Part shown: positions 9,001 to 39,176 of the stretch, piece after piece
How positions within the stretch are numbered: the first letter of the stretch is position 1
Layout: each line of letters begins with the position of its first letter
Source of the DNA: Balanoglossus misakiensis
Lineage: Eukaryota; Animalia; Hemichordata
DNA length: 64,000 bases
Direction of reading: 5' to 3'
Assembly: GCA_040954595.2 (NCBI GenBank)
Contig: CM082583.2
Span: forward strand, 10,863,656 to 10,927,655
Made by a program: the position numbers and the translations under genes
The notes under the pieces: generated by a model
What the model saw: the letters and a program-made list of their open reading frames with translations, nothing else
Database searches by the model: none
What the model was told of the DNA's origin: nothing

Positions 9001-10350
9001 TTTGAACATTTTCCTGAGCTATAACCCATGGTTTTTTCAAAAAATGACCAAATTTTGAAAATTCGAAAAGTCGAAAAATCCTCGATTTTTGAACATTTTC
9101 CTGAGCTATAACCCATGGTTTTTTCAAAAAATGACCAAATTTTGAAAATTCGCAAAGTCGAAAAATCCTCGATTTTTGAACATTTTCCTGAGCTATAACC
9201 CATGGTTTTTTCAAAAAATGACCAAATTTTGAAAATTCGAAAAGTCGAAAAATCCTCGATTTTTGAACATTTTCCTGAGCTATAACCCATGGTTTTTTCA
9301 AAAAATGACCAAATTTTGAAAATTCGAAAAGTCGAAAAATCCTCGATTTTTGAACATTTTCCTGAGCTATAACCCATGGTTTTTTCAAAAAATGACCAAA
9401 TTTTGAAAATTCGAAAAGTCGAAAAATCCTCGATTTTTGAACATTTTCCTGAGCTATAACCCATGGTTTTTTCAAAAAATGACCAAATTTTGAAAATTCG
9501 AAAAGTCGAAAAATCCTCGATTTTTGAACATTTTCCTGAGCTATAACCCATGGTTTTTTCAAAAAATGACCAAATTTTGAAAATTCGAAAAGTCGAAAAA
9601 TCCTCGATTTTTGAACATTTTCCTGAGCTATAACCCATGGTTTTTTCAAAAAATGACCAAATTTTGAAAATTCGAAAAGTCGAAAAATCCTCGATTTTTG
9701 AACATTTTCCTGAGCTATAACCCATGGTTTTTTCAAAAAATGACCAAATTTTGAAAATTCGAAAAGTCGAAAAATCCTCGATTTTTGAACATTTTCCTGA
9801 GCTATAACCCATGGTTTTTTCAAAAAATGACCAAATTTTGAAAATTCGAAAAGTCGAAAAATCCTCGATTTTTGAACATTTTCCTGAGCTATAACCCATG
9901 GTTTTTTCAAAAAATGACCAAATTTTGAAAATTCGAAAAGTCGAAAAATCCTCGATTTTTGAACATTTTCCTGAGCTATAACCCATGGTTTTTTCAAAAA
10001 ATGACCAAATTTTGAAAATTCGAAAAGTCGAAAAATCCTCGATTTTTGAACATTTTCCTGAGCTATAACCCATGGTTTTTTCAAAAAATGACCAAATTTT
10101 GAAAATTCGAAAAGTCGAAAAATCCTCGATTTTTGAACATTTTCCTGAGCTATAACCCATGGTTTTTTCAAAAAATGACCAAATTTTGAAAATTCGAAAA
10201 GTCGAAAAATCCTCGATTTTTGAACATTTCCCTGAGCTATAACCCATGGTTTTTTCAAAAAATGACCAAATTTTGAAAATTCGCAAAGTCGAAAAATCCT
10301 CGATTTTTGAACATTTTCCTGAGCTATAACCCATGGTTTTTTCAAAAAAT
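1..10350. repeat. 87-bp satellite DNA array (~119 monomers, truncated by the window start)
   Basis: Head-to-tail monomer TTCCTGAGCTATAACCCATGGTTTTTTCAAAAAATGACCAAATTTTGAAAATTCGAAAAGTCGAAAAATCCTCGATTTTTGAACATT recurs every 87-88 bp with only point variants and short indels. Confidence 0.99.
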
Positions 10351-10600
10351 TACCAAAGATGACAAAATCATCAAAAAGTCGAAAATTTGTCATTTTTGGC
10401 ACTTTCATGGGCTATAACCCATGAAAAACGTCCAAAGATGACAAAATCACCAGAATTTTTGAAGTCGAGAATTTGTCATTTTTGGCACTTTCATTAGCTA
10501 TAACCCATGAAAAACGTCCAAAGATGACAAAACCACCAAAATTTTCAAACTCGAGAATTTGTTATGACTTTGCCATTTTTGGCGATTTTGTCATTGTTGT
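10351..10600. repeat. Diverged satellite junction monomers (second subfamily, ~86-88 bp)
   Basis: CTATAACCCATG recurs at 10324, 10412 and 10498. The sequence between (CCAAAGATGACAAAA..A; AATTTGTCATTTTTGGCACTTTCAT) is shared among these units but differs from the main monomer. Confidence 0.85.
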
Positions 10601-12552: not shown

Positions 12553-15500
12553 TTAGTTGCAAACATGTAATTCTTCATTTCGGGTGCAGGTTTCACACGT
12601 GACCACGCAGCACCAATGAAATCGACAGTTGCAACTCTCCGTGACCCTTTTTTCCATTGTCTGGTATCCTCGTCCGCAACACATTCTTGAGCAGCTGTCG
12701 CTGTGTCGGCTTGTCTTATTACAATAGCGTCCATGCGTCCCGACAGATTGGTATTTTTTGCTGCGTTCACACCAATCTGGCGACGGGTCAAGATACACCA
12801 GCTCTTCTTGCGGAAGTCGCCGCTCTTTCTTTGGGGTGCTGCTGTCCCCCGGCAGACTTGAGATTATTTGTTTCTGGTGAGGGCGCAAGCGTTTCTTCTT
12901 GCGCGCATACTTGACGCGTATAGCTTGGAAGTACTTGTCCATCAAAACATCTCCGAGAACGCGAAATTTTGCCATTGTCCGCCAACAGATTTTCGATGAA
13001 CAAGAACCCGAGACGCCGTGGCATTTACACTTGGTGTACATGTTATCTTTAATCGCCTGAAAATGACAGAAAATGTTAACATTAAGGAAAGGTTTATAAA
13101 AATATAAATACGACAATGCAATTTTGGTACCAAAATGAAATCATGGAAGTGTCTTGCGGATCCTGACTACTTCCAATCAATAATAAAACCTGCAGAAAAG
13201 GTCGGATATTGTGCATATATGCATGTACCTTTCACAGGAAAGTAAGATTATTAGGTGAAACTGCTCACACAAATGAAAGTTGTTCGAACACAACGAAATG
13301 CACGCTTTAATGGACACAATTCAACAATACCAGAGAAAAAATGGAAGACATATGTTGAGGTCAGCAAATAACAAAGAGTGGCAGTTTATGGGTCTTGAAG
13401 GCGCACAGGCCTTTTGACCGGATGGTGGCAACTGCTAGGTGCAGTCGGTAATCCGTGAAATGCTTCGATACGATCCATGTAAGAATACCCCCTGTGAAAC
13501 AGCTGTGCCTTTAGACCTTGGGTCGTATATCCAATTTGTGAACAACTTCCGTTGAAAGTATTCCGGTACGGTGATTCGGTTTTACGAGCATGCAGTGGAA
13601 AGGGTCCATTGAACAATTCTCGCGAAAAACAAGTTCTGAAAGTGATGTCGTAAATCACCAATTCAACCTAAAGTTGAAATCACGGTCAATGTTCGATGTA
13701 CCGTAAAGGGGTACTCATCTGTGCCGTACGCACAGACTGTACGCCATGTTGCTGACCCTGAAAATGACCCTCAGAACCAAGAAGGGCGATTTAAGTGATT
13801 GTTGGGATTCTCCCCAGTGAATCTTTGCGCATAGGCATAACAAAGAAGTACAGTTTTACCGGCCATCTCAGACTGCTGGTTCAACATTTGCACCTAATAT
13901 GTTTTGACTTCCACAAGAAAAGAAAGGTTAATATCAACGCACACGAGCATACACTGTCACATTCCAGACGACGTATGGGGGGTAACCTATGGGTCAAGAC
14001 ATGCGAGCACGTGATTTTGCAGGTGTGGTCGTGAATATTTACCAATCAGCTGCTTCCCTGAATGACTTGATGCAAATAGGTAAAATTGAACGACGCGATT
14101 TGAAATAAAATTATTGACGCGGTGGATTGTACACGTTTAGTAGCAGAAAAGGTCTCGCGGCCACGAAATCTCGTCGTTTTCGTTAAAACAGGATAACAGG
14201 GTTGTAAAATTCCTCAATAAACTTTCTCGAGGGTCGCATAATTCGTGTTGGTTGCTCATCAAATTGTTTCTTTGACCTCTGTCGCTAGCAGTAAACCCGC
14301 TAATCAGGCTATTACTCTGCATTAAGTGATTCCAGATCTAGACGTAGCATTCAACAGAGAGCCTGACTAGGAAGCCTTGTGTCCCAGTCGCCGTTGAAAT
14401 AACATTTAGGCGTCTGTGTATCTCATATCAATGTTTTCAAAATGAAATGATTCTTGTTTCACGTGAACGGTGTCAAGATAGAAACAGGATAGCTTGGACG
14501 GCAGTGTCTCACGTCATAGGTATTTTGGATGAACCACAAATCTCCACTTCTTGGGGGTCGATATCAATGTCCCACTACGCATTCAAATCACCGTCACCAT
14601 TCTATGATATGGATACATTCACTCCCAGGAACTCGATCCCTGTCGTAATTTCTAAGACATGAAAACGACTATATGGGGTTTTCACTATTAATAAATTTAT
14701 AATTTACAAAGGAATTCGACCTTGAACCGGCGCTGGTGGTGATATATCGAGACAAAACGAACAATCTACGAAATAGAAAATCAGGGGGTTGAATACTTCG
14801 ACTAGTTTTTCAAAGTGGCACAAAAGCACATACGGAAGACCTCAACCGTGTGAAGAATGTAGCCGTGCATGCAGATACATACTACAGATTCCGACGAACG
14901 AGATTTACGGTTCTCCGTGCGAGATTTACAGTTCTTAGTCAGATTTGATTTAGTGCTTGTTTGTATGCGTTTTTGCTTCCCTCATGTACAAAGTCACACT
15001 TGACAGTTTGTGGTTGTGGCGTTTGTTGTCGAACAGAATAGCTTCAGGTCACTTCCATTTGGAAGACAGGGGTCAGTGGTTGACTGGTTGTGCCAAAAGA
15101 GACAAATATATTAACCGTTGAAATGTTTTCAGTCGGAAAATATATGTCACGAATAAAACAAACATATATAGACAAGAGGCAAGGCGACCACGGAAAAAAA
15201 CCGTGCCTTCGTGAAATTCCCGTAATACCCGCCAAGGCATTAAATATTTGCTCGGTTCCTTCATAAATCAAAGTCGTAAAATTCTGAGGCAAGAAGAAGC
15301 CCCCGCGATATGTCCTGTCCCACGAACGAAGCGGACTTCCGGAAGATACTCTAAATTTATGATCATGACCCAGGACCAGGAATCATTCGGATTGCCATCA
15401 GCAATTTGCTGCCCTAGTGCTACGACCAGGTTACACCCGCAGACAACGGCAAACATCTGCAAGACATGGTTTGTGTCGTAGTACATTTAAATACAAATTC

Positions 15501-18500
15501 AGGACAGTTCTGTCAGTCAACCAATTTATGTTTCAATTATTTTTTCTCGTCTGTGGTAGTTAAAACCCCATGCAGGCACTTCATCATTATCATCCAGTTT
15601 CCACTAGACGTTTCAACTCAAATTCTTCGAAAGATTTTGATTCAGGGTGACACGATAATTCCACCACTCATATTTTCCAGTTGAACACAAAGATATAGGA
15701 AGAACGCAGCATTTCAAATAAACAGAAATAAGTCTACGAGACAGATTTGGCATCAATCACAGGCGTGTTAACGTTTGCAGTATATATAACAGACAGACTT
15801 TGTGTTGTATAATATTTACATAATATTTACTGTACGCCGTGATTGTAGAATGTTTAATAGTGGCGGAAAATTATCAAAGAAATTTGAATTTCTGTTCTGT
15901 GTACAGGTGGATTTTCATTTAACTAACATTCTGAGTCAGCTGAGAAAAAATGTTTAAATATGTCCGGATTAACCATCAGTTCCCTGGAGCGTCAGTTCAA
16001 TAGGAAAACAATTTACGCGTGACCAAGTACGTAGTTTCAATATTTACCTGTTGCGGACTGCGTGGAAGTTAGCGCTCGCTCTGGGCATTGGAACTGACAG
16101 AATCAACACTGCTTGAAATCCAAAACAGTGGTATCGAGTAAAACTTTTTAAAATAGGAATTTAAAACTGAAGGCTATTTTAAAACTGATGGATATTTTAT
16201 CAAGGCTGTGTTCTTTCACTGCTATCAGTACCGTTCATTAAATTAACGTGATTTTGAATAGACTGGTGTGTTTGTTACGATACATCGAAAACGTCTTGGG
16301 TCAGCAAAAACTTTTTGTTCATAGGCTTCCCAGTCCTTATGATGCTTCGTGTCATATACCTTCGCATTCTAACAAAACCCGACTCCAGAGCACCGGTGCG
16401 GTCAATCGACGGTGACACGAGTACAAGGCGCCCTCTTGAGGGGATGGAGACTCACCTGTCGACCAGCTTCCTTATTGTGGCTATTCATGAGCTTGATCCC
16501 GTCGTCAACTCCTTCGACTTCGCCCATGAAATCGGTGGTGAAGTAATTCCCGTAGCGTACGTTGTCGTTGCAACCGTCCCAGTTCCACTTGCTTTCGTCA
16601 TCTGTCGGTCGGTACTTGTTGTCACATCCGCACACCTCTTCCAGTTCCCCTTCCCCGCAGGCCCTTGTCACACTGTACGACACACCGGCTGACATAACGG
16701 CGTGGAGAAACGCTGTTTCTGCACTTTCTGTGTGAATCGATGAAGAAGAAGAAAATACACTTTATTGCCCGATCAGCTGCAAAGCGTAAATTTGTATAGA
16801 CTTGCATCTTCGAAATGCTTCGGCCAAAATTCGTTCCGAGGGCATATCTCAATGTCTCTCTGCCTCTCTGTCTGGCTGTCCATTTGTCTGTCTGTGTGTT
16901 AATCTGTCTGTAATTCCACGTGTGTGTGAGAGAGTCTCTCTGTGTCTGTCTATCTGTATCTGTGTCTATCCCCCCCCTCTCTCATGCAAGGACCATCCAT
17001 GCCAAAAATACTTGCTACAACATGCAAGAGATGCACTTAACAGACGACTTGTCTTCGTGGACAATTAAACGACAGTAATAAAACATGGTCTGAGAAAGGT
17101 TAACATAAATCAGTCAAAACATATTTGCCTGCAATTCTTGCTAAGAGGGGGGCTTGAATTTCTATACAAACTGAGAAGATTTAAAGTTATTGCACAGAAT
17201 GGATACTCAATGTCAAAGAGCGAAGAGGACATTCTCAGTAACAGCACATGTTTATTTACACGCCATGACAAGAATCGACATGTATACACATACAACTTAC
17301 ACCAAGCTTAAGTCAATAATAGCGAACATTAACTAAATGTTCAAAAACATCCAACTATACTGCGGGCTACATGTACACGTACGATTGTTAATTATCTTGA
17401 TAAGATGTTTTTATCGTTAAAGATCGTATAGTTTCAAGTTCAATACATTGGGCCATTGTGCGTTTGTATGCAGTGTAGAGCAACTTTTTGGGCACAACGA
17501 AATTTCTCTTTGCTGGCGCAATTCAGTTTTCACGAATTTACTCACTTGCTACAGAAATCCGCACATAGAAACGTGAATATCCAATTGAGGAGACAGGTGT
17601 AATGTCTCAACAACTGTCAACATACTTAGTAAGGTCTAGTGGTTCACCAATCTGATAAAGCCGTTGGCACGCGTCCACTACAGGAGCTTCTGATTGGCCT
17701 GGGTGTCGCCTGTCAATCAACCGGTTCTGTCAATCACGTGATGGATGTTGGGTTATTGACACTGTGGTTATCAATTCTTATAATTTTGTCAATTGTATAT
17801 TTTCAAAATAATGAACGAGGCGCAGCGGATGTAATCACGGGCGTGGAATTTGAACTTATGTCAGGATTTGTTTAAAAGTCGAACATTTCAAACAAGCAAA
17901 AATGTTCTGGCGAGTTTAAATCATTTATTTAATGCATTGGGTCACACATAAAGTAGCTTTTGTGGCCCAGAGTCACATTTTTATTTTCTATGTCAGGTCA
18001 GATGTTGTATATTTTACATATTCCCGACTGGCTCGCTTCAGCTGACAGTTTTATGATTAAGGTCAACAGTCCTTGCGAACACATGACGAACACATTGCGA
18101 GTCTGACCAGATCAGACCATAAGCTCTGTTTTCTGAGATCTTTGCCCACGCGTTCGCACACGCGTGTAGGACTGCGCAATTTTGCAATGATATCGCTCTA
18201 TAATTGAGGTTTGCCAAACTTTTTGATTTTAATATAATAGCGATTCCTAGAATGATTTTATTCGCGGTTGAAAACAAATTAAAGCACGTTATGGTTGTTT
18301 ATTGTGCAAATCAGGCGTTAGAGTGTCTGGCTGGTCCTAGGTTACATCTGGTGTTAGGCCTAAGTCCAGGCATCTCGAACTCTATTTTCCAGATGAGTGC
18401 GTAGGTGTTTACAAACTCGTAAAAGTTCACTCGGGTTCCGACAAGCTCTAAAATCTTGCACGTCAGCGTTCCATGTTCCCATTCTTCAGAACGCAAATCA

Positions 18501-21500
18501 GAGGGGACGGATTGTTTAAGATGTGTTTTTTTTTCCAGACTGGAACCAGTTGTAGAATTATTAATGGAAAACCCATGCCCAAACTGTCAATCTTGATGGT
18601 TTGTTTTGGCGACCGAAATCTAGAAGTATCCAACTTGCATGTTCGATGTCCGTTAACACCACAACTTCAACCGCCAGTGTTGTGTTCTGGCAATGTTGTA
18701 TTTTGTCAACGGTTCTGCTAATGCCTGGCACATGGTGATGTACGCTAACTCAACTATGCACACAACGAATTCCGACCACTAGCCAGCAGATCTTTAACGT
18801 GGCAGAAAAGACTTTTACACAATTATTACACAGGACAGACTCACGTGACACTACACTACACTACACTACACTACACTACACTACACTACACTACACTACA
18901 CTACACTACACTACACTACACTACACTACACTACACTACACTACACTACACTACACCACACTACACTTTACTTGCATCACTAATGAATATGTTTGAACTA
19001 AATTCAGAATAGGCGCTGTGTATGGCGTATGTTTGAGCATTTTATCGACGCGATTGCCATTTCCAACAATGGACAGCTTCTAGGGTTCACGCCAACACCC
19101 CACGTCTGAACTGGCTTGTCACCCCACAATAATTCAACATGTACATGTAATCTCGCAACTCCGGAGCCCTAACATCCTCATGTGTGACCTATTTTCCAGG
19201 TCCCCAGATAACCCTCCGAATATTTCAATTTCAGTTCAACATCCTGGCTCAATTTTGGCGATGGATTTATAGGACGGCCCGTACCCTTTTACTTGTTTAA
19301 CGGTGCTTCATTCTGGTTTTCTATAGGAATTTATTCGCTTGTTTTTCTCAAGAGTCCCGTTTCTTTCCTTAGGATGAGATAAATCCCAGCGAAAATATTG
19401 GATACACAGACTGACGGCACTGATTTTAGAGAAAGTCTGTTGAAATATTCCTTATTATCTAGGGCGTCGAAAATAAACGTCTGCTCAACCTATGCTCTAT
19501 TAATCCCAATACCAAGATATACCCATGAGAAGTATCTAAATTTGTGTTATCTACCTAGGTGGCCGTGACGTCATCGATCGGTGCGGAAGGATACTGAATC
19601 GTTAACACATCGGAGTCGATCGGTGAGATTCCATGAACAACGCAACATGGCCCATCTTTGCTGCAACGAAGAGCGGACCTTTTGGTTTTACTTTTTCAAG
19701 TTGGATCAACTCATTCATCGAGCTCCATCAAAGTTTGGGGCAAAAATTAACTCGATTATTTAGAGCGGGGAAATCGTGTTTTCTTAACCCTCTGCTTGGC
19801 GTGCAACGAGCAAACATGGAGGGGCCAGACCTGTCAGGACAGGGTGTGCTTACGTCATGTCCACGTCATAGCGGACGTTTCAAAGCCTTTGATCCGGGAA
19901 CGTGCAGTGGGTCGGCTGCAATTTGTGTCCCATCATTCTGTGAGGGTTTCGAGATCTCTCCAATTCTCTTGACACGGCGAACAGACGACTGCTCTGGGTA
20001 ACGTTTAAGAGATGATAGAAACCTGATCCGCGCTTAGAGAATTATTTCTTTTTATAGGTACTTGTGAAAAATATGATACCTGCTTTCCGTTTCCAGAAAC
20101 GACATTTGAACGCTTCATACGCAACAAGCAATAACGTTCGGGAAATTGATTTTTGTTGCATGGAATTGACAACAGCGTGGCGAGGAAAAGCTAGAAATCA
20201 GATCCGCCATGTTATACGCACGCAATTCTTTGTAGTACAGGTTTGAGCGCATTGCACCATGGAAAGTAAAGCGTTATGACGTATGCGTACTAATATAAGC
20301 AGTGGTTAGCATTTACTTCAATGAATCTGTCGCTTTCAACTATTTAAAGCACTAGTAACTCAAACCTTTGGCTATTTTTCACAGTATTTTTGTCCCCATG
20401 TATCAACTCCGGTTTCTTGCTCTACTCTAGATATCTTTCTGAAATGCATTTGTCACCTTTATTAGCCAATGGCAACAATAATGAGATTGAAACCAGAAAA
20501 TCCAATCCCCTCTGATGAAAAGAGTAAGAACAATAGAATAAATAATAGTCACATTCACTTTTTTGTCGGACGACCTTAAGGTCTCTAAGCGGAAAGATCC
20601 CATTTTGACGCACTGACCGCACGAGTTCTATTATCAATGTCGGATAGAATTTAACATTCTGATGAAGGTTTTGGGTTCGTTTTCCGCTGAAAGGGACAAA
20701 GAAACTCAAACAAATGCTACAAATGCTCTCCTCTGTTGCGGGGAAAGTCAAAGGCATGCTATGTCTTTAACTTTATTATCCATTAAATACAGTCCAACAT
20801 GATGAAAGCTTTGATGAGCATCATAACAAAATTACGACCAAAGCAGCATTAGAGCGGTACGCTGTAAAGAAAGGTTACAGGAAAAATAAAACGTAGGCAG
20901 GGGTCCAAATATATTTATTTGGAGAAAGTCGATAAAAATACTTACTGACGTGCAGCACTCTTGAGTTAAAGATGGCGGTTGAATTTTCAATGGGACAGTT
21001 CCATCTTTGATGCCGGAACTGGTGTCGGCATTCGGACAGTCCTATTGCTGCGCCCCTTTCCGTGTTTGGAATTATGTTAGGTATCGCTAGACACAGTTCA
21101 CGCTGTCGTTTTCCCAACCACGTGACGGAGTCACAATAATTTTTAACCTCTGAATTAGACCACGTTTGGGCGTTTGAGCTACGAGTTCTCCCCGTCAAAG
21201 CCTGGCGTTCTTGTCTTGACCTGGGTAGAAAAAAAACACAGATATAAATTGGAATGGCGTCAGTGACAAAAATATTTGAAATAATTTATTGAGCTTAAGA
21301 ACAGCAATAATTCTTCAAAACAAGGGAGAGGTACAGCATTTAATGATGACGAAATGCAGCAAAAATATAATTGCATCACGGGTTCTATTAGATCCAAGCG
21401 AAACTTTCAACCGGTGCGGTGGTCGTCATGAGCCGTGAAATGACACAGCCCACTAGTCCCCTGACAATAATCACATCGTTTGTCACGCCTGAATACTCGC

Positions 21501-28175: not shown

Positions 28176-31100
28176 ATGGGTCACTCCGATTCGAAGGAAG
28201 TAGCAGAGGACGAAATTTGGAACTGTGATCTGAAGCTTACGCCAGAAGAGTTGGAACTGGGTCGCTACGACTATCCCTTCGAAAATCTCGTTTTGGAGGG
28301 CGGAGGTGCAAAAGGCATAGGATACCATGGAGCATTCAAGGCAAGTCATTGATGTCATTTTCATTGATGATCCACAATATTACAGATATGTATGCTTTAT
28401 ACTGTAACTTTCATCTCAGTAATTGACTCTACATTTGTTCCTAGCTACAATTCCCCTCGCGCTAATGGTATAAAAGACAACTAACAAATTGGCTGAATAA
28501 CTCATCATTGCTTGATGATTACGTGATATCTGAGTGGTTCGTTAATTGCCATCGGCGTCCTCTCTGCGTCACTAAACTTCTTGCCTTCACTTCTTTTAAA
28601 CAAGCTACAACGTGTTATTTCATTTTTTCTTATGGCTGTACAAAAAAGGTTACTAACAGGCGCAAAGACTTCAAAGTTGACTAAAAAAAAATTCATGTCA
28701 ATACGGTTCGTGAATATGGCGAATTTATTCCCTTGCTATAAATATCTCCAACTCGTAACATATTATTTTTGATTCTGTGTCTTAAACCATATTGCACCAT
28801 ATGTTCGAGGTTGATCTTTCTTGGTTTTGTTCTGAATATTTTGTCAATTAAACGTCGAGTTGCAAAATCAAAATCTATCATTAAAGAATTTTAACCAACA
28901 GCTTTTAGACACAACCAATTTTAAATTTTTCATACAATAAATCGTTTTCACTAATACCTGGTTCTGACTTTCTCTCTTGTAGGTTTTGTCAGAGCTTGGC
29001 ATATTTCCGAAGTTTAAGCGTTTGGCGGGAACAAGCATTGGGAGTATAGCAGCGGCGCTGTTGGCTGTCGGCTACAGCCCTGGTGAAGCAGTGCGCATGA
29101 CTATGATGGAAAGCGAGCGTTATTTGTCAGGTGAGTGACGCGTGAATTACAAACTATTTGCTCAGTATAAGGGGATTGGATAACTACGCATGGAGAAACT
29201 GTTGGTTGTATATAACAGGGTTCGTTTGGTCTCTCGAGCTCGCTGGTAGAGGATATTTATGAAGTTCGCGCACTTCATTTCAAATTTAAGTTCAAGAGCT
29301 ATTATTTCTCAGAAACGCACTACTTTTCTCATATTAAACAGACATCACCACCCTTAATTTTGGAACAAGAAAATTAGCTTGAATCTTGGAATACACTTCT
29401 GCTGACAATTCTCTGATTAACAAGTCACCACAAAGAAATATCCAGCCAATACGTGTCCTTCTCTATTTTCCAATCTTAGACCATTCGTGTGGAATGCTCA
29501 GCTTGTTGCCGAATCTCATAAAGGACTATGGATGGAACTCGGGAAAGAACATGCTGGAATGGCTCGGTGAGAAGATCGAAGAGAAGACCGGAGATAAAGA
29601 CATCACTTTCAAAGAGGTAAAAACCAACAACCGCTCTGTTCAATCCTACAGACCTCTTTTAGAAAGACGTCTTCTTTGTTTAATTTGCCCCATTAACACA
29701 ACTAACAATTTCGATCATCAGGTGTACATGAATTATGGCAAAGAGTTGTGTATTGTTGTAACAAATGTGAACCAGATGGACGCTGAATACTGCCATGTCA
29801 AGACCACGCCCCTCATGCCGATCAGAATTGCAGTGCGCATGTCTGTTTCAATCCCAGGTAAGTCAGAGTTTTTAAAAATAGGGTCGTGAATTTGCGAATG
29901 AATTTGGTCAGATTAACCATTCTATATTGTCAGCTCATTGCTTTATATTTCATATATTCATTGAAAACATTGTGTTATATTTTTCACTCTTTTGTTTCTT
30001 AAAAAGCTATATTAGAACCTGTCAGATACGTACGTGGAACAAGTACAGATCTGTACGTTGATGGTGGTTTACTAGTGAATTTCCCGATACACGCTTTTGA
30101 CGGTAGGTATATACTATATTGATCTGGGTTTGTCTGAAATTTCCGGTGTAATGCCATGATGGTATAACATCCGTTGGAAAAATATATACTAGTACTCTCC
30201 AAAATATAACCAACACAGGACCATGCTCCACTTTGAAATGAATCAATTTTAATTTATCATTTGATCTGATTTCTGCACAGGATGGTGGCTGTCAATGAAG
30301 CCTGAACATAATTTTCTATCGAAACTTACCGGCCTTAACGATCTAAGTAAAATCTGGGATAAGAACAAACGATTTGGTGGTTACAACGAGAAGACTATTG
30401 GTGTTTTGGTGGTAAGGCAACAAATTGTTGATTGTTTAAGGAAATTGATTACTGTTTCTTTGTGAGAGATGTATGTACATACATACACACACATATGCAT
30501 ACAAAATTATGTTAGTTGTAAACTCCTATTTCTGCATATTTAATAGTACACCGGCGATGACCACGAAATAAATGAACACGCCATGAATGAACGAAGATAT
30601 AAATATGAAGAGCAAGCTAGACCAATTCAGCGCCCTGACTCTAAACTTGTCCGGTAAGGAAACTGGCATATGTTCATATTTTTGACAATCTTTGTGGAAA
30701 TTTTATCCACATATGACATCCTTGATAACGATAGAATTTTGGGTATTCTAGACGATCCCATCCCTCGAAGTGTTGTGGAATTTTGGCGACTTGGATAACA
30801 GGTATGCATGTCCTCATTACAGGGAAAAAGAGAAAACAAGTCGGTTAAAGGAACACACTCAGTCACAATACGCAGAGACATGCGCCGCCATGGCGAGGTT
30901 TGTGACGGTGATGGGGAAAGGCGACGAAGACAACAACGCAACGGTCGACAGAAAGGAACTCGAGGAAGTCTTCAGTGCGGTAAAGTCTTTACATTGTTCA
31001 TTTGAGATTGGGATTCAACACACTTTCTGTGAAGGTGTGTGATAGGGCGACGGTAAAACTCTGTTTAGTATACATGTTCCAAACGATTACTAGCATTATT

Positions 31101-32099
31101 GACTAGAAAGAAACCAGCCTGCTATACTGTATGCCGATATTTTATTTTTTTCTCTTGCAGAATGAAATCTTCACAGCCAAAGACGCAGAGGCGCTCTTCG
31201 GTGAAGATTACACGATAGAAGGTGTATTTGAAAAATTGGATAAGGATGGCGATGGTGAGGTATGTCATACTCTGTTTCAGTGATGCTAGGGCAGTCACCC
31301 CCTGGACATTTAAATATCGCATAAGACAAGTGAAGCTTTAACACCACGGTTTTGTGTGATGACTAAGTTACAAAATTTTGCAAACAGACATGGCTGTTGA
31401 TCATCAATTACTTTAATTAACAGATCAGCATGTTGGAGTTGATACAGTTCGCCGAGGAACGAGGAGTGAGACTTTGGAGTATGTTTGCTGGTTATGACAG
31501 ATACGAAGTGAACAATGTCGGAGACTATCTGACCGCGGTGCAAGAAACTGTTCTCACTAATGTCAAGAGACTCTACAACGAAGTAAGAGAAATCAAGACT
31601 TGTATTTGCTGGCTTGCAACCTGTAACTACATTAATTAGCCAAGTCTCGCGAGATCTCGTGTTTTTATATTGATATCTCAATACTTTCCTTTCGCAGGAG
31701 GGTGATCTGGATCGAACCATTGCCATTTATCTAGATTACCTGGAAGGGGGTGACTTCTTCACTGAACAAGCTGACAGGACCTTCGCCATTCAGGTAAACA
31801 TCAATCTCTACAATGTCATTATCGTCGCAAAAGGCTGTATTTGTAAGAAATAATTTTTGTGTCCGAAATAACACCATCTAAAGTTAGAAATAAGTTACCT
31901 GAGTGGCACGAAAACTGTAAACATTGTCAAATATATTTGCTTTCAACAGCAAGGAGCCAAGGCGACGCTAACCTTTCTCAGACACTACGTTGACAAATTT
32001 AAGCCCCCTTTGAGGCCAGAGTTCAAGAACGAAATAAATGGAGTGATCGCCGTAGAGGGCCAGGGACAACACGCCGACGAGGAACAGACGGCGGACTGA
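28176..32099 (+). CDS. Patatin-like phospholipase (ExoU/VipD-like) with inserted EF-hand pair, paralogue 1, 12 exons, 526 aa
   Basis: Exons 28176-28340, 28983-29130, 29480-29616, 29722-29857, 30007-30102, 30281-30411, 30547-30653, 30823-30979, 31161-31259, 31424-31582, 31698-31793, 31950-32099 (1581 nt, in frame). Motifs: NLVLEGGGAKG, AGTSIG (nucleophile Ser), MSVSIP, YVDGG (catalytic Asp); EF loops DEDNNATVDRKE and DKDGDGEISMLE. Intron 1 is GC-AG. Confidence 0.93.
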
Positions 32100-32889
32100 A
32101 TAAAGGAAGAGAAATCTGGGAATGAAGAATAACAACGTTGACTTTAGTTACATCCTATAGATTGCAAGATTATTTACACCCAGGTGGTTTCATGGAGTTA
32201 AATGATTATAGTCGGCTCAAGCTGGCGCCCTCCCACCAACTATCTGACAAAAGACACGTTGCGCTATATTTGTTAAGTCTTTGATATGTCTATTACAACC
32301 CGAGTTGCTTCACAACCGAGAAAGACATAGATACCAAAAAAGGCTCCAGAGTTTTCGTGTAATCATTAATCAATCATAATAAACTGTTTTTTACTCTTTA
32401 ATTCCATAGTATTATCGCCAACTATCTGGAATCAACAATTTCTGTTTCAGAGTGACAGCCCGTTCCGGTAGCCATTGCGGACAAAATTAGAAAAACAAAC
32501 AAACACTGTTACTGTTACTGGTACTAGAAATAAAAAACAACATTTTCCACGCGTCTGCAAAACATAAATATCGAAAAATGCAATATGTATGTAGTTATAT
32601 GTCCGTATTTTTGACCGACAGGGAATGCAACTTTTGGGGGATCCATACTGACGCAAAATCGAGGCAGCAGTATTCATGATAATATGTGATAGTATAGAAG
32701 TGTAATAAAACATTATAGTCATTAATGTACATGGCAGGAATAAAGTGCCTTCAGATACATTATGTGTCGTGTAGTTTGTGCAGTAATGCTGATACCTGGA
32801 ATAAGGGTATATTGGTATAACTTTACATAGCACGTGACATGAGTACGAAAGTCCACATTGGGACATTTTTGGAAAAAATGTGGGTGCGT

Positions 32890-32951
32890 TTGGGTGGGTG
32901 GGCGTTCTTTGGGTCGGTTGGTTGGTTGGGTGGGTGGTTGGATGGATGGAT
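32890..32951. repeat. Degenerate (TGGG/TTGG/TGGA)n simple repeat between the phospholipase paralogues
   Basis: tgggtgggtggg...ggttggttggttgggtgggtggttggatggatggat. Confidence 0.75.
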
Positions 32952-33464
32952 GACAACAGCCTCCTTTGTTTTTATTTACACACTTTCAACATACGCATCA
33001 ACACCTCTCCTGGTGCAGTGATGATTGCAATGAGTTGTGTATTTGTGGGTTGTTTGTCAACCTCGTACAAGGCTATATATTGTTAAGCTTTTATCACAAC
33101 CTATATCTGACAGCGGCCTTTATGCCTAATATTTTTTTTTAATTCATGCAATTCCCTGTTATGTCAAGGCTAATTGACTATTTTTATCGGTCAAGAATTT
33201 TCTCTCTTTTGACTATTCAAACATACATTATCATATTAATGCACTTACTTGATGAGTACTTTGCCTATTAATTTATTAGTATTCACTTCAACTGTTCAGT
33301 TAGTCACGGTTGGTTGCGACCAGCGACGCACTACAGCGCGCAAACAGTGAGGTATTCACATAGGTGATAGTATATTCGTATACTAATCCACGTACGTTGC
33401 CCGCAGCAATTCTGCATTGTTTTCATACTCTCACTTAGCTTTCCAGTGTTGGTGAAACAGCACT

Positions 33465-36400
33465 ATGGGGATGTTCGAGTCGAAGAATGCCAAAGAGGGG
33501 GAAGGGTGGGCATCTAACGTCGAGTTAACTCCGGCTGACATGCAACTGGGGCGATACGAGTATCCATTCGAAAATATTGTTCTAGAAGGAGGTGGTGCTA
33601 AAGGGATTGCCTACCATGGCTCATTAAAGGTAAGTGCTAGTTGTGGATTATGATACAAAACGTAGTCACAATCAACAGGTATCCACATTGTGAGTGACGC
33701 ATTTGCTGCTGTCAGAATATCAAATAGCTCGGTTTATGAACCCCTTATATTCCTTTTGTCAAGTCATTTCTGATTTCTAGCGAAGTCCACATCTGTAATT
33801 CAACTATAATCTTGCGAAGAAATGGCTCCAGCAGTCTATGTCAGTTTAAGAGGTTCTTCTACATTGGGTGTAGGCCTTATGACCACTTTGTCAAATTGGC
33901 AATTCTAAAATGTGACCCTCCTATGACCTCCTGGGACGTTATCTGAAACAGTTTTCTACCCCTTTCACCGCCATGGTTCAGTCCAAATCCACTGTTTTCT
34001 AAGGTAAGGTTGGACCCTTAAAATGGGAACTGGGGGGTTAAAGGGTTAAATATGACTCCCTCACGATTCATCCGGCCCACCACTCGTAATAACTGACAGC
34101 AACCTAGTTGCAATATCCAGACGCGCAAAAATATATTTACTTCTGCAGCAGAATGCCTAATTAAGGGCAAATATCCTTCGTGATAAGGTACAATACGGCT
34201 ATCATTCATTGATTGTCGTGAAATGTTGTAATTTGTCTCAAGACGGTAGAAAATATGGCCAGCGATATCTCTTTGTTGTCATACAGGTATTAACAATTCA
34301 TCATCCATCAACTAGACTGTGACGAGTTCATTAGACCAAACCCCTATAGAAGCTACATGCACGTTTGTAATGCCTACTGCCAGTAGCGACATACGACACT
34401 TTTTATCTGATATATTCTTTTAAATCCTCCTGGTTATGTTGAAAAACACAACACGTCATGAATTTTACTAAAGCGTGTTAGTTTCGCTTGTTATATAGAT
34501 CTCTACCCATTTCCGTCAAATTCCAAATTTTAATTGAAGTCAACTACGGCCATGACCCTCTCCACCACGACAGCAGACATAAAACTAGGCCCCGGGTGAC
34601 ATTTATTTGAACACAGAGCGCAATAATCTGACATCGTATTCAGGTCAAAATATCTAAATTACTTTTCCGTCAGTCATTTCTATTTTTAACATTTTTAATG
34701 TTTTATCATGAGTTATCTTTCGATAGGATCGTGGATATTTCCATGATCTTTTACCTACACCATGATCTTTTACCTTGTACCCAACTATAAACTGTGTATA
34801 TTTCTGTATTATAGATAAACACAGCATAACATAAACATTCCATGTGAAATACCACTTCTCTTGTCATAAAAGCTCGCACACTGACTGTCAGAGTGAAGAG
34901 ACACCCGCTAACTGTTACGTGCATTAGTCATGACCATGACATTGTAAATTTTGACATCTGTCGCTCGTCGCTGTAATCTTCCTTTCAAACAATATTGCAA
35001 TTTATTCATTGTGTGAGCTTAATTAAATTAATAATAGCCCCTTTTCTAAACAAAAATATAATATATTTAAATTCAAGGTATCTAAACAATTCAGACCCAA
35101 TGGTCTAATCAACAGTTCATTTCCAAAATACTAATTGAAAATTCCTCTATTTTAACGTGCAGATGACACCTGTTTTTACGTGTTAATTCACTTGTACTAT
35201 CAGTCTGTTTTTTAAAGTGGGACATGCATGCATGGTAGTCTATTTTATTGATTCAACAGAGCGTCCTCGTTGTACCTTACCCACCCAATGCAATATGGTG
35301 ACTGAATTGGCTAATATTAACTGCGATTATTGTACCAAAACTCTATAATCACATGAAATGGACAGCAATTGCAGGGTCTTTTTACTTAATTGAAATTCTA
35401 TGAACGGACTAAATGCAGAAAACAGTTGTCTATATTAAAGGTCCGTAGAAGTATTTAACATATTTTTGCATCTGTCCAACATTAACTTAACCCACAATTT
35501 CTGAGTGTTTAGGCACACAAAATTTACAAAAAAGGCCAAATTAACTGATGGTCATATCAAGCATATTTGACAAAACTTGGGCGGCAAGGATAAACGGATG
35601 GGCGGACAGTGGTAACTTATGCATGAAATCCACACTCCTCCTTTCTCAAAGCGGACAAGAAAAATATCATGTAATAATTTTCTTTTCAACATGGCAGGTG
35701 TTATCCCAGTTGGGCATATTTCCCCAAATAAAGCGTTTTGCTGGAACGAGCATTGGCAGTATTGGAGCAACATTATTGTCGGTGGGTTATAGCCCGGATG
35801 AAGCTGTCGTTACGGTCGTTAACGAGAGGGACAAGTATCTAATGGGTGAGCATTATCCAAATATAAATTCTAAATAATGGATATACATTATTGTCTTTGA
35901 ATAACTTTATAATGGTATTATCTTTATGCAATTCCTATCTGAAGGACCAAAAATCAACCCTTTTAAGTTCTCGAATTATATAAAATATTAAATGCAATCA
36001 CTAATTTTTCCCCAACGAAGACCATTCGTGTGGCATTCTCAGTATAATTCCCAATATCGTAATGGATTATGGATGGAACCCTGGCAGGAAAATGCTGGAA
36101 TGGCTTGGCGATAAGATTGAAGAGAAAACAGGAAATAGAGATATTACCTTTAAAGAGGTATTTATATTTAAAACCTATAATTATTGTCAAAGTCTGAGTA
36201 GGAGAGATGTGTTTGCTTGAAATTTTGCTATTTTTGAATTTTATTTGATTGACGGAAGTCCAGCTTCCTTGACAAGCTGCAAATATTTTTGGGTTTGGCT
36301 TCAATGAGGCCACTAGATTTATTTTACCCAGTACTGTATAACGATTTATCATCTTGAAATTTGAATACGCCTATCCCTATGAGACCTGCATACAGCATAC

Positions 36401-39176
36401 ACGTACTTGTTATCATAAATCAGCCACAGGGATGATTCACATACACTGAGGCCTTAAACGTGTGAAGTTTTATTTGACACGCTCGACGAATTTCCCCAGG
36501 TGTATATGAAGTATGGCAAAGAGTTGTGTATTGTCGTAACAAATGTGAACCAGATGGACACCGAATACTGCCACGTCAAGACCACGCCCCTCATGCCGAT
36601 CAGACTTGCTGTGCGCATGTCTGTTTCAATACCAGGTGCGTCACTCTTCATGTCATTTCCAGGCCAACCCGGCACACAATTCAAATTTGATGTCATTATC
36701 CATTAACGATAGTGCCATTATTTGCTAATGTCCAGCAATTATTAAGTTATAAAAATATAAACCTGTTGTACCCTTACCTCTTGTAATAACACTATAGAAT
36801 AATATCCGTGTAATATCATTCAACCAAATATTGTCTGACATTAACGAGGATTATATTTAACATTACTAATGACTTCTTCCCGATTTTATTTCTAGGCATG
36901 TACGAGCCAGTTAAATATTATGCTGGTGCCAATACGGACCTGTATATCGATGGTGGATTACTGGTGAACTTTCCAATCCACTGCTATGACGGTGTGTTTA
37001 TCTTTTAGCATACATTATAATTATCAATTCCGCGTGGGAGATCTATCGTCACAAAAATGTAACAGTATGTAAAATGTATTTTTAGTTGACAATTACTCTT
37101 CAATAAGAACCTAACCAATCTTTCATTATACTGAACTTGTAGGTTGGTGGCTCTCCTTGAAACCGGAAGATGCATACATGAGAAAACTGACCGAACTTTG
37201 TTCACTCAGAAAAATATGGGATAAAAGGGAGCGATTTGGAGAATACAACGACAAGACCATCGGCATTTTGGTGGTAAGGCAAATGCAACATTTGATAACA
37301 TATACAGCTTACCCAGGAATGACTTCTACCATAAAATTCACTTCCGTGCCGTTTCAGTGGATCCCATTTTCACGTCTGTTGGCCTAGAAGCAAAATGAGA
37401 AGTCAACATGGATCATTTGACCATGAAAACAGTGGCCATATTATTATGTTGCTATTTCTTTCTTCAGTACACTGGCGAAGACCATGAAATTAACGAACAC
37501 CAAATGAACGACAGAAGGGCTACTTACGAAGACATCGATGGGGAACTTGCAAGACCTGAGACCAAACTACTTCAGTGAGTAATCAAGCACACTCCCTGTC
37601 ATAGCGGGACTGTGAATCGAGCAACTTCTTCCACAAAGACAGAGACGACACTGAGAATATGTGCGCTACTGGTTATATCATAGCTGAGCATTCCTGGTGT
37701 GCGCATATCAATGGTGCTCAAAACACTGGTCCAGGTGTGATGTTTGCTTTGATTTATCCCCCCTGCGCACATCTGCTTAGGCTAAAATGTCACAGACATG
37801 GTTTCCAACACACCTGGCCAGTTTCCTACGATATGATTGGTCAAAGAAATGTCACGCGGTGTGTGTCATTTTCGCCTACACACACAATGCGCGTGTCAGC
37901 GTTTAACATACGTCAAACTGGTACTTGAAAAATATTTAACGATAGCTGTCTCTTTGAGATTGTGTTGAAAGTATTTTTATAATTACGCAGAAAAAAGAAG
38001 AAGAAAAATCGTCTGAAGGAGAACGCCCAAGTGGAGTATGCGGAGACCTATGGCGCCATGTCACGTTTTGTGAAGGTGTTAGCAGCAGGCGATTTAGATA
38101 AGAGCGCCACCATCGATAGGAGTGAATTGGAACAAGTCTTCAAACATGTAAGCAAGACAGTCGTGTTCAAATATTAAACCTTGGCCTATAACACTAATAA
38201 TTTAAACATGAACGTGTAACTCCAACAAGCATCTTAATAATGGTTGTATTTGAATTTCAGCAAAGCATTTTCACAGAACAAGATGCAAAGACGATATTTG
38301 GTGAAGATTATACGATAGGGAGTGTTTTCAAAAAATTGGACAAAGACGGAGATGGAGAGGTTTGTTGTTCATTTTTATTTCATTCTGAACTGCATGGTAA
38401 TTAGGCTCTGGGTTTTATTAAACGTCAAACAGTATTCATGACTACTGGTGGTGTTTACTGTCGGTAATCGTTTTGGGCAACGTAATCTGTTTGTCGCTGC
38501 AGATCAGCATGTTGGAGTTGATACAGTTCGCCGAAGAACGAGGAGTGAGACTTTGGAGTATGTTTGCTGGTTATGACAGATACGAAGTGAACAATGTCGG
38601 AGACTATCTGACCGCGGTGCAAGAAACTGTTCTCACAAATGTCAAGAGACTCTACAACGAAGTAAGAACATTATTTTTCATTGCATTGGAACGCGATTTT
38701 TATTGTTTGTTTGTTTGTTTGTTTGTTTGTTTGTTTGTTTGTTTGTTTGTTTGTTTGTTTGTGTCAACGGTAACAACGTACGTCTTTGTGAACTTATTAT
38801 CAAAGGAGCGTGATCTAGATCGAACCGTCGCCATTTATCTTGACTATATCGAAGGAGGTGATTTTTACATGGAAGAGGCCGACAAGATCTTTGCAGTTAA
38901 GGTAATCCATGAACTTGTTCCGTTTGCTGATAAAAATTTATTTTACACCGGTATCCAAGAAGGGGAAAACAGATGTGTTTGTCCTGTGTCACATGAGAAT
39001 GTCCCCTATCCACGCGAGATCTCAAAGGGTCTCGCGGAATTCGGAAAATTGTCTATTACCATCACCATCCATATTTTCTCTCTCTTTAACAGCAAGGTGC
39101 CAGAGCGATGATAACATACCTGAAACACTATGTTCAAAAGTTTAACCCTCCTTTGAAGAAAGACGCCGGTGACTAA
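33465..39176 (+). CDS. Patatin-like phospholipase (ExoU/VipD-like) with inserted EF-hand pair, paralogue 2, 12 exons, 504 aa
   Basis: Exons 33465-33629, 35698-35845, 36021-36157, 36500-36635, 36896-36991, 37143-37273, 37468-37574, 37991-38147, 38261-38359, 38503-38661, 38806-38901, 39093-39176 (1515 nt). Exons 1-11 have the same lengths as in paralogue 1. Motifs GGGAKG, GTSIG, YIDGG; EF loops DLDKSATIDRSE and DKDGDGEISMLE. Confidence 0.93.
33956..34049. mobile_element. Possible short MITE (piggyBac-like ends) in intron 1 of paralogue 2
   Basis: Imperfect terminal inverted repeats CTACCCCTTTCACC ... GGTTAAAGGGTTAA around a ~70-bp core; the right end finishes in GGG-TTAA. Single copy in the window. 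Confidence 0.4.
38703..38761. repeat. (TTTG)n microsatellite in intron 10 of paralogue 2
   Basis: ttgtttgtttgtttg..., ~14 units. Confidence 0.97.

Follow-up and report, generated by a model that had tools for sequence, protein, structure and literature searches.

The acorn worm Balanoglossus misakiensis carries two tandem genes, A and B, for patatin-type proteins with a pair of EF-hands. They lie in a 64,000-nucleotide stretch of contig CM082583.2 (GenBank assembly GCA_040954595.2, positions 10,863,656 to 10,927,655 of the forward strand), referred to below as the window. A structural model and spacer lengths place the EF pair within the patatin fold, in the regulatory segment ahead of the last strand and helix. 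This placement, which recurs across animals, protists and bacteria, appears to be undescribed, and the proteins are candidate membrane-anchored phospholipases under the control of calcium. What is new here is the topology, the range and the proposed mechanism, not the existence of the proteins.

Two intact genes with patatin and EF-hand motifs

Splice models of genes A and B were built from splice sites in the sequence plus homology. Both genes lie on the plus strand, each with one open frame and a single terminal stop.

28176..32099, plus strand: gene A, EF-hand patatin, 526 amino acids (aa), 12 exons (spliced open reading frame, ORF; 84.6% identity to Ptychodera flava P0001 over 501 aa)
28176-28340, 28983-29130, 29480-29616, 29722-29857, 30007-30102, 30281-30411, plus strand: gene A exons 1-6
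30547-30653, 30823-30979, 31161-31259, 31424-31582, 31698-31793, 31950-32099, plus strand: gene A exons 7-12
33465..39176, plus strand: gene B, EF-hand patatin, 504 aa, 12 exons (spliced ORF; 80.6% identity to P. flava P0002 over 500 aa)
33465-33629, 35698-35845, 36021-36157, 36500-36635, 36896-36991, 37143-37273, plus strand: gene B exons 1-6
37468-37574, 37991-38147, 38261-38359, 38503-38661, 38806-38901, 39093-39176, plus strand: gene B exons 7-12

The acceptor is AG at 22/22 introns and the donor is GT at 21; the single GC donor belongs to intron 1 of gene A (28341-28982), the equivalent of which in gene B has GT. Exons 1-11 are equal in length and phase between the two genes, and matches to P0001 and P0002 run along the length of the gene models. 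A tblastn search within the window finds these two copies only. In a tree, the A/B duplication is older than the split of the source worm from P. flava.

Both proteins have intact GGGAKG (residues 42-47), GTSIG (71-75) and DGG (214-216) motifs, as an earlier note on this DNA had read from the spliced sequences. EF loop 1 (EF1, residues 341-352) and EF loop 2 (EF2, 386-397) come next, followed by a DRTxAIYLDY..GDF..QGA segment (residues 450-482). We define the canonical EF-hand pattern by ligands at positions 1, 3, 5, 7, 9, and 12, in a strict and a loose version. EF2 of A and B fits the strict pattern and EF1 only the loose one. Pfam Patatin (PF01734) matches P0002 at residues 38-224 (E 6.5e-27, 95.4 bits) and P0001 with 93.6 bits, against a cut-off of 27.7; even single window exons score 31.1 and 28.1 bits. 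EF-hand_6 matches P0002 residues 380-405 above its cut-off (31.6 bits), and EF-hand_7, a pair model, stays at 21.5 bits under a cut-off of 30. The gene pair is intact and the combination of patatin and EF-hand, which the earlier note had proposed, is real.

N-myristoylation has a consensus of Gly2 plus Ser or Thr at position 6. Both proteins start with MGxxxSK, with no in-frame ATG upstream before the nearest stop, and N-terminal myristoylation of A and B is predicted from this motif. Where the long helix into EF1 starts, gene B also carries a run rich in lysine. It is found in P0002 and P0003 as well, is much weaker in gene A, and is possibly a second membrane anchor. The motifs are as follows.

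28176..28196, plus strand: gene A N-terminal MGxxxSK, predicted N-myristoylation signal (from sequence)
28299..28316, plus strand: gene A glycine-rich oxyanion motif GGGAKG
29028..29042, plus strand: gene A GxSxG nucleophile motif, Ser73 (Pfam Patatin on the exon, E 3.3e-07)
30060..30074, plus strand: gene A DGG motif, catalytic Asp214
30923..30958, plus strand: gene A EF loop 1, residues 341-352, loose pattern only
31239..31438, plus strand: gene A EF loop 2, residues 386-397, canonical, interrupted by intron 9
31710..32000, plus strand: gene A elements closing the fold behind the insert (last beta-strand, regulatory loop, C-terminal patatin helix), as placed by the orthologue model
33465..33485, plus strand: gene B N-terminal MGxxxSK, predicted N-myristoylation signal (from sequence)
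33588..33605, plus strand: gene B glycine-rich motif GGGAKG
35743..35757, plus strand: gene B GxSxG nucleophile motif, Ser73 (Pfam Patatin, E 2.8e-06)
36949..36963, plus strand: gene B DGG motif, catalytic Asp214
37992..38018, plus strand: gene B lysine-rich stretch, start of the long helix into EF1 (net +7 in 12 residues)
38091..38126, plus strand: gene B EF loop 1, loose pattern only
38339..38517, plus strand: gene B EF loop 2, canonical, interrupted by intron 9
38818..39140, plus strand: gene B closing elements (last beta-strand, regulatory loop, C-terminal patatin helix), as placed by the orthologue model

The EF-hand pair is inserted within the patatin fold

An AlphaFold2 model was made of P0002, standing in for gene B, from a 52-row alignment; its numbering is that of gene B to residue 499. 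The model has a predicted local distance difference test score (pLDDT) of 85.1 and a pTM (predicted template modelling score) of 0.82. Strand 266-272 is followed by a helix of 37 residues (304-340), then by the EF pair with its helices and short strands, helix 424-443 and strand 452-456; the chain then runs through loop 457-468 into helix 469-494. In alignment, single-domain patatins cover about residues 34-494 of the model: PlpD with Z 23.6 and a root-mean-square deviation (rmsd) of 2.9 over 251 aligned residues, CapV with Z 23.9 and rmsd 3.8 over 281, and VipD with Z 24.2 and rmsd 3.8 over 263. In the structural comparison of this model the three are thus equally close (Z 23.6-24.2). EF-hand proteins align to about residues 322-409 only, with middling Z of 7-8 (best Z 8.1, rmsd 3.9, 66 aligned).

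Spacer lengths agree. With our own sub-profiles for the catalytic core and the C-terminal segment, the distance between the two parts is 179 aa in A and B and 165-170 aa in 11 insert-bearing bacterial loci; it is 19-52 aa in those viral and bacterial loci that show both parts but no insert. The model of a myxobacterial member has the same topology (pLDDT 82.7). The predicted fold confirms the earlier suggestion that the EF module sits inside the enzyme, and locates the pair in the regulatory segment, ahead of the last strand and helix. That name is taken from a 2026 review (PMC12871566), in which the region measures 48-83 aa across five tabulated enzymes. It relays Rab5 binding in VipD to a loop closing the active site, and provides the dimer helix in iPLA2beta. 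The word EF-hand has no occurrence in that review.

Range of the family

A query of exons 3-4 gave 65 proteins, and a profile at E <=1e-10 gave 326, of which the best 120 were used; from a search for representatives the best 150 matches were used. Among the matches listed, named members belong to hemichordates, echinoderms, amphioxus, molluscs, annelids, nemerteans, and cnidarians. Fourteen of 30 divergent representatives carry names, and these include a diatom, Thalassiosira exigua, and a protist, Papus ankaliazontas. Names of vertebrates, arthropods or nematodes are absent from the matches listed, no search being aimed at these groups. In the Atlas, Patatin plus EF-hand occurs in three eukaryotic clusters and one 73% bacterial cluster (score 0.98). 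By sequence, A and B are nearest to the members of this widespread family, which share their layout and occur in invertebrates, protists and some bacteria. Next are insert-free giant-virus and bacterial patatins (L001-L012, L024-L092), which are uncharacterised and have 29-43% identity across the catalytic part.

No EF match was found in any of 11 viral ORFs scored, and a search of viral contigs with an alignment of bacterial and divergent members found no relative. Four of nine insert-free viral ORFs examined start with MGxxxS (L001:2815-3903, L002:2872-3891, L007:2968-3945, and L008:2815-4005; two are labelled GVMAG), which suggests that they are myristoylated viral phospholipases.

Some members are fused to other domains. 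P0184, P0236, and P0257 are long proteins joining a sterol-sensing/Patched domain to a patatin of this family, two of them with weak EF-hand matches, and P0050 has an N-terminal PDZ domain. Nine others (P0065, P0308, P0327, P0340, P0353, P0373, P0391, P0413, and P0414) carry the JGI label 'arachidonate 5-lipoxygenase'. The label was rejected, as there is no lipoxygenase domain in any member scanned or listed; it may stem from a fused or mis-joined reference gene.

Bacterial members and phylogeny

Among the best 80 of 406 matches in a scan of species genomes, 11 were full-length bacterial matches with 34-39% identity. All 11 genes are intronless and have both EF loops; their GC content is 61-74%, and 74-98% at third codon positions, near the contig values. 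Contamination of metagenome-assembled genomes with eukaryotic DNA is ruled out by the intronless genes, the contig-like GC and the presence in named species. A further search (best 120 of 148) found members in Myxococcota (including Cystobacter ferrugineus and Archangium lipolyticum), Actinomycetota and Bryobacterales. The gene is rare in bacteria, being present in 3/401 genomes of a phylum sample (centre included) and in 2/22 in the family.

Trees were built from 80 hand-picked rows using the core columns alone, with the insert excluded, in LG+G4 and quick mixture-model runs. The insert-bearing proteins stand on one side of a branch and 19 insert-free viral and bacterial rows on the other, with support in the Shimodaira-Hasegawa-like approximate likelihood ratio test (SH-aLRT) of 99 (LG+G4) and 97 (mixture). 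Fourteen bacterial insert-bearing rows and one further row form a clade (SH-aLRT 98) near protist rows. A placement of the bacteria as sister to everything else is not rejected by an approximately unbiased (AU) test (p 0.29; the group was chosen post hoc). Transfer from eukaryotes to bacteria would fit the rarity of the bacterial genes.

Permuted NlpC/P60 proteins (PF05708) are linked to lipid substrates. In 8/11 myxobacterial loci a gene of this type lies just downstream of the EF-patatin gene, in two loci with a leucine-rich repeat (LRR) gene in between. Close homologues of this neighbour occur in 2/401 phylum genomes, in both cases adjoining the EF-patatin. The two genes possibly form a two-enzyme lipid-remodelling unit.

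L021:5383-6087, L023:5380-6063, L015:6675-7421, L018:4945-5703, L096:7481-8218: PF05708 neighbour gene

A second bacterial clade (L101-L118; GC 50-57%) groups with Actinomycetota-named proteins. Its EF-patatin lies among ordinary metabolic genes, for example a GH3 glucosidase, and has no NlpC/P60 partner.

Conservation of catalytic residues, EF loops and the MG start

Conservation was scored in 51 non-redundant near-full-length relatives and 31 bacterial proteins, and, most widely, in 112 catalytically intact non-redundant relatives. The catalytic motifs are kept in 48/51 relatives and 31/31 bacterial proteins. EF2 fits the loose pattern in 46 of the 51 relatives, the strict one in 41, and the loose one in 23/31 bacterial proteins. 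In EF1, Glu12 is kept in 46/51 relatives; all 31 bacterial proteins have Glu12 in both loops. The MGxxx[ST] start is found in 25/51 relatives and 0/31 bacterial proteins, and an MG start occurs together with EF-hands in 35/51 relatives. The lipid-anchor motif and the sensor vary independently, because bacteria keep the loops without MGxxx[ST] and viral ORFs have MGxxxS without EF-hands.

Twelve members (P0174, P0188, P0194, P0198, P0204, P0209-P0211, P0215, P0234, P0255, and P0257) have neither the catalytic Ser or Asp nor canonical EF loops. Judged by these residues, they are likely to be pseudo-enzymes.

A predicted dimer and apparent gene conversion

Exons 4 and 10 are far more alike between A and B than the rest. 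In exon 10, 157/159 nucleotides and 51/53 third positions are identical, and in exon 4, 127/136 and 38/45; in the remaining ten exons 34-57% of third positions are. Both tracts of identity end a few bases from the exon edges.

31421..31588, plus strand: gene A exon 10 tract, 98.8% identity over 168 nucleotides to gene B 38500-38667, apparent gene conversion
29719..29865, plus strand: gene A exon 4 tract, 92.5% identity over 147 nucleotides to gene B 36497-36643, likely older conversion

The P. flava paralogues are likewise most similar in exons 4 and 10 (40/45 and 48/53 aa), and conservation of exon 10 across the family is ordinary (0.57 vs 0.46-0.79). This pattern points to conversion of the two exons between A and B; a polishing artefact is the alternative.

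Two copies of P0002 were modelled with four calcium ions from our own alignment, with a pass mark of 0.42. In calibration, 20/30 microbial homodimers and 1/23 monomers passed this mark, as did 17/29 eukaryotic homodimers and 0/30 monomers. P0002 scores 0.45 (run range 0.39-0.47) against 0.00 for the best of three controls; the runs share at least 74% of contacts, and the partner pLDDT is at least 74. In the predicted dimer the helix 427-442 after EF2 would contact the partner at residues 211-218, beside Asp214, and at the 164-170 hairpin. Thirty interface residues are confident, of which 17 are encoded by exon 10, 7 by exon 4, 5 by exon 5, and 1 by exon 7. A and B are identical at 29/30 of them and at 315/448 positions elsewhere; the figures for the P. 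flava pair are 29/30 and 312/448. The chance of hitting exons 4 and 10 is about 0.015-0.02. On this model A and B may form mixed dimers, and the match of converted exons to the predicted interface would, if true, show plainly how concerted evolution can preserve a dimer surface.

A proposed calcium switch and its alternatives

We give about an even chance to the reading that A and B are membrane-anchored patatin phospholipases switched on by calcium at EF2, by way of the downstream helix, the gate loop and the partner's catalytic segment. The myristoyl anchor would hold the enzymes at the membrane, where they would work as dimers. When cytosolic calcium rises, it would bind EF2, with EF1 acting as its partner, and move the exit helix and the helix downstream. 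This shift would give the regulatory loop (457-468), along with the segment bearing the partner's catalytic Asp, a new position, and the site would open. The substrate would presumably be phospholipid, split into free fatty acid and lysophospholipid that would serve lipid signalling or the remodelling of membranes. If true, lipid signalling set off by calcium in corals, molluscs, echinoderms, and acorn worms may run through this family. The intronless members in Cystobacter and Archangium ease testing.

Several points count against such a switch. The models were made on a P. flava orthologue, not on the window proteins themselves. The dimer passes its mark narrowly, with a ligand outside the calibration. 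Only 1/7 eukaryotic pairs without an older solved relative passed, and because of this, likeness to the iPLA2beta dimer may account for the pass of P0002. The match between interface and conversion was spotted post hoc, and a rank correlation over the 12 exons is not significant (p 0.53); exon 5 is unconverted yet holds five interface residues. EF1 fits the loose pattern in only 18/51 relatives, often since position 1 is Asn. Neither loop is canonical in 29/112 catalytically intact relatives, some of them possibly misaligned, and EF-loop state changes about 18 times on the tree; calcium binding therefore looks dispensable in many lineages. EF loops are also missing in 12/14 catalytically dead members (Fisher p 2e-5), but this association is gone in independent pairs (median p 1, few informative pairs), and co-loss of catalysis and EF loops is unsupported once relatedness is allowed for. 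The MG start is missing in bacterial members. The effect of calcium could also have the opposite sign, as calcium-calmodulin inhibits iPLA2beta (PMC12871566).

That last point bears on one alternative, in which calcium binds but inhibits, or only steers membrane targeting as in a recoverin-like calcium-myristoyl switch. The frequent pairing of MG start and EF-hands in the relatives agrees with it, as do GCAP1 and NCS-1, the top EF-hand matches of P0002, although these are weak (best E 0.007). There are, however, two EF-hands only, against four in the NCS family, and the anchor and the sensor vary independently (0/31 bacterial proteins with MGxxx[ST]; 4/9 viral ORFs with MGxxxS but no insert), so that a myristoyl switch is unlikely as the ancestral role. 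We regard inhibition or targeting as unlikely.

Alternatively, the EF pair has a structural role or is a vestige. The protein would then be a lipase or transacylase that works without calcium in the turnover of membrane or storage lipids, under the control of dimerisation or of a partner protein. The relatives without canonical loops, which include the diatom and one amphioxus protein, speak for this, and classical PNPLAs are calcium-independent according to PMC12871566. The PF05708 gene adjoining in the myxobacterial loci suggests a lipid-remodelling unit. But the EF2 ligand positions are kept in cnidarians, spiralians, deuterostomes, and bacteria, which a structural loop would not need, and EF2 is strictly canonical in both window proteins. 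We leave this explanation a small chance.

The immune or cell-death role raised in the earlier note, here a membrane-destroying effector like CapV in the cyclic-oligonucleotide-based antiphage signalling system (CBASS), set off by calcium influx on damage or infection, is quite improbable: the fold common to CapV and CapE (Z 21-24), lineage-specific paralogue expansions with Ser-less copies, and the patchy bacterial occurrence (3/401 genomes) are in its favour, but PADLOC and NCBIfam phospholipase-effector matches on P0002 are weak and generic (21-32 bits), no cyclase or other recognisable defence gene is among 43 bacterial neighbour ORFs hand-picked from about 180 called, and in the window the pair adjoins a Wnt gene and SLC10 transporters.

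Returning to activation by calcium, a wider reading is tentative and rather doubtful. It holds that these proteins are an old, overlooked class of intracellular phospholipases, directly activated by calcium through in-domain EF-hands and in trans across the dimer. They would be an alternative to cPLA2, with its C2 domain, for releasing fatty acids in response to calcium in most marine invertebrate phyla, and would have been exchanged with bacteria, and exon conversion in acorn worms would keep the A/B interface identical for mixed dimers.

Surroundings in the window

Positions 1-10423 of the window are an 87-bp satellite of about 119 copies with 97% matches, in which the long minus-strand open frames are translations of the repeat. 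Upstream of the patatin pair and pointing away from it is a Wnt gene on the minus strand (12553-21285); three of its exons match PF00110, and its first exon is probably near 24.8 kb. A cluster of SLC10 / sodium-bile acid symporter genes occupies positions 39970-64000. It has at least five members, four of them read from the minus strand and one from the plus strand.

Comparison with known systems

What controls patatin-domain lipases is a separate activator (Rab5, ubiquitin, cyclic nucleotides) or a separate inhibitor (calmodulin). A sensor built into the control segment would, if true, give a one-protein model of patatin allostery. The review defines these lipases as calcium-independent (PMC12871566). 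The patatin class, allosteric control via the regulatory segment, and the domain pair in the Pfam annotation of many proteins are already known. In line with the earlier note, no characterised member came to light: no paper on an EF-hand patatin family was found by title or opening of the abstract in the open literature, with subscription journals largely uncovered and supplements outside the search, and six member gene identifiers gave no matching papers.

Among solved proteins, Legionella VipD (4AKF, 4KYI) and Pseudomonas ExoU (3TU3, 4AKX) match best in sequence, at phmmer E 4.6e-12 and 1.4e-9 and profile E 2.4e-25 and 4.5e-20. This ranking would be consistent with membership in the CDD family Pat_ExoU_VipD_like (cd07207). 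The likeness to these effectors claimed in the earlier note holds among solved structures, where they are closer in sequence than iPLA2beta; they are distant and not the nearest relatives, as the same-layout family is nearer. VipD, VpdC and ExoU share with A and B the Ser-Asp dyad and a last strand and helix after the regulatory segment, the loop of which gates the site in VipD. A and B differ in having no Rab-binding, ubiquitin-binding or membrane-localisation domain past the patatin fold: about 10 residues follow the last patatin helix in B and about 32 in A, whereas the VipD chain aligns to 438 of 560 only. Their regulatory segment, with the EF pair, is about 185 aa, against 71-72 aa in these effectors. 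They are also endogenous intron-containing genes, unlike the secreted effectors VipD, VpdC and ExoU, and the NCBIfam T4SS_VpdC equivalog model gives 69.6 bits against a cut-off of 1000.

CapV, CapE and PlpD have the same fold as P0002 (Z 21-24), tied with VipD, and CapV and CapE are ligand-switched. Their switch is a cyclic nucleotide, however, and an EF insert is absent. With the CBASS_lipase model the score is 21 bits, where the cut-off is 200, and no cyclase is present in the window ORFs scanned. The insert-free giant-virus and bacterial patatins have the C-terminal strand and helix as in A and B, but with the short spacer and no EF match.

iPLA2beta/PNPLA9 (6AUN) has the patatin fold in common with P0002 (Z 20.6, rmsd 4.6, 292 aligned). 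It dimerises via a helix in its regulatory segment and is calcium-sensitive through calmodulin. Identity in the structural alignment is 12%, and iPLA2beta is not among 25 phmmer matches of P0002 at E <=1. A and B have no ankyrin repeats. The calcium sensor of iPLA2beta is a separate, inhibitory protein, whereas A and B carry the EF pair within.

In PMC6523306, 66 predicted urchin phospholipase A2 (PLA2) sequences are without a C2 domain, a weak lead for EF-patatins standing in for cPLA2. The urchin iPLA2 of that paper was rejected as a family member, being ankyrin-type and of a different family. cPLA2 itself, a calcium-controlled intracellular phospholipase, is likely the functional analogue of A and B, and cPLA2alpha (1CJY) has a related Ser-Asp fold (Z 13.2, rmsd 5.2, 279 aligned). 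While cPLA2 binds the membrane under the drive of calcium by an N-terminal C2 domain, A and B have no C2 domain and carry the putative sensor inside the catalytic domain.

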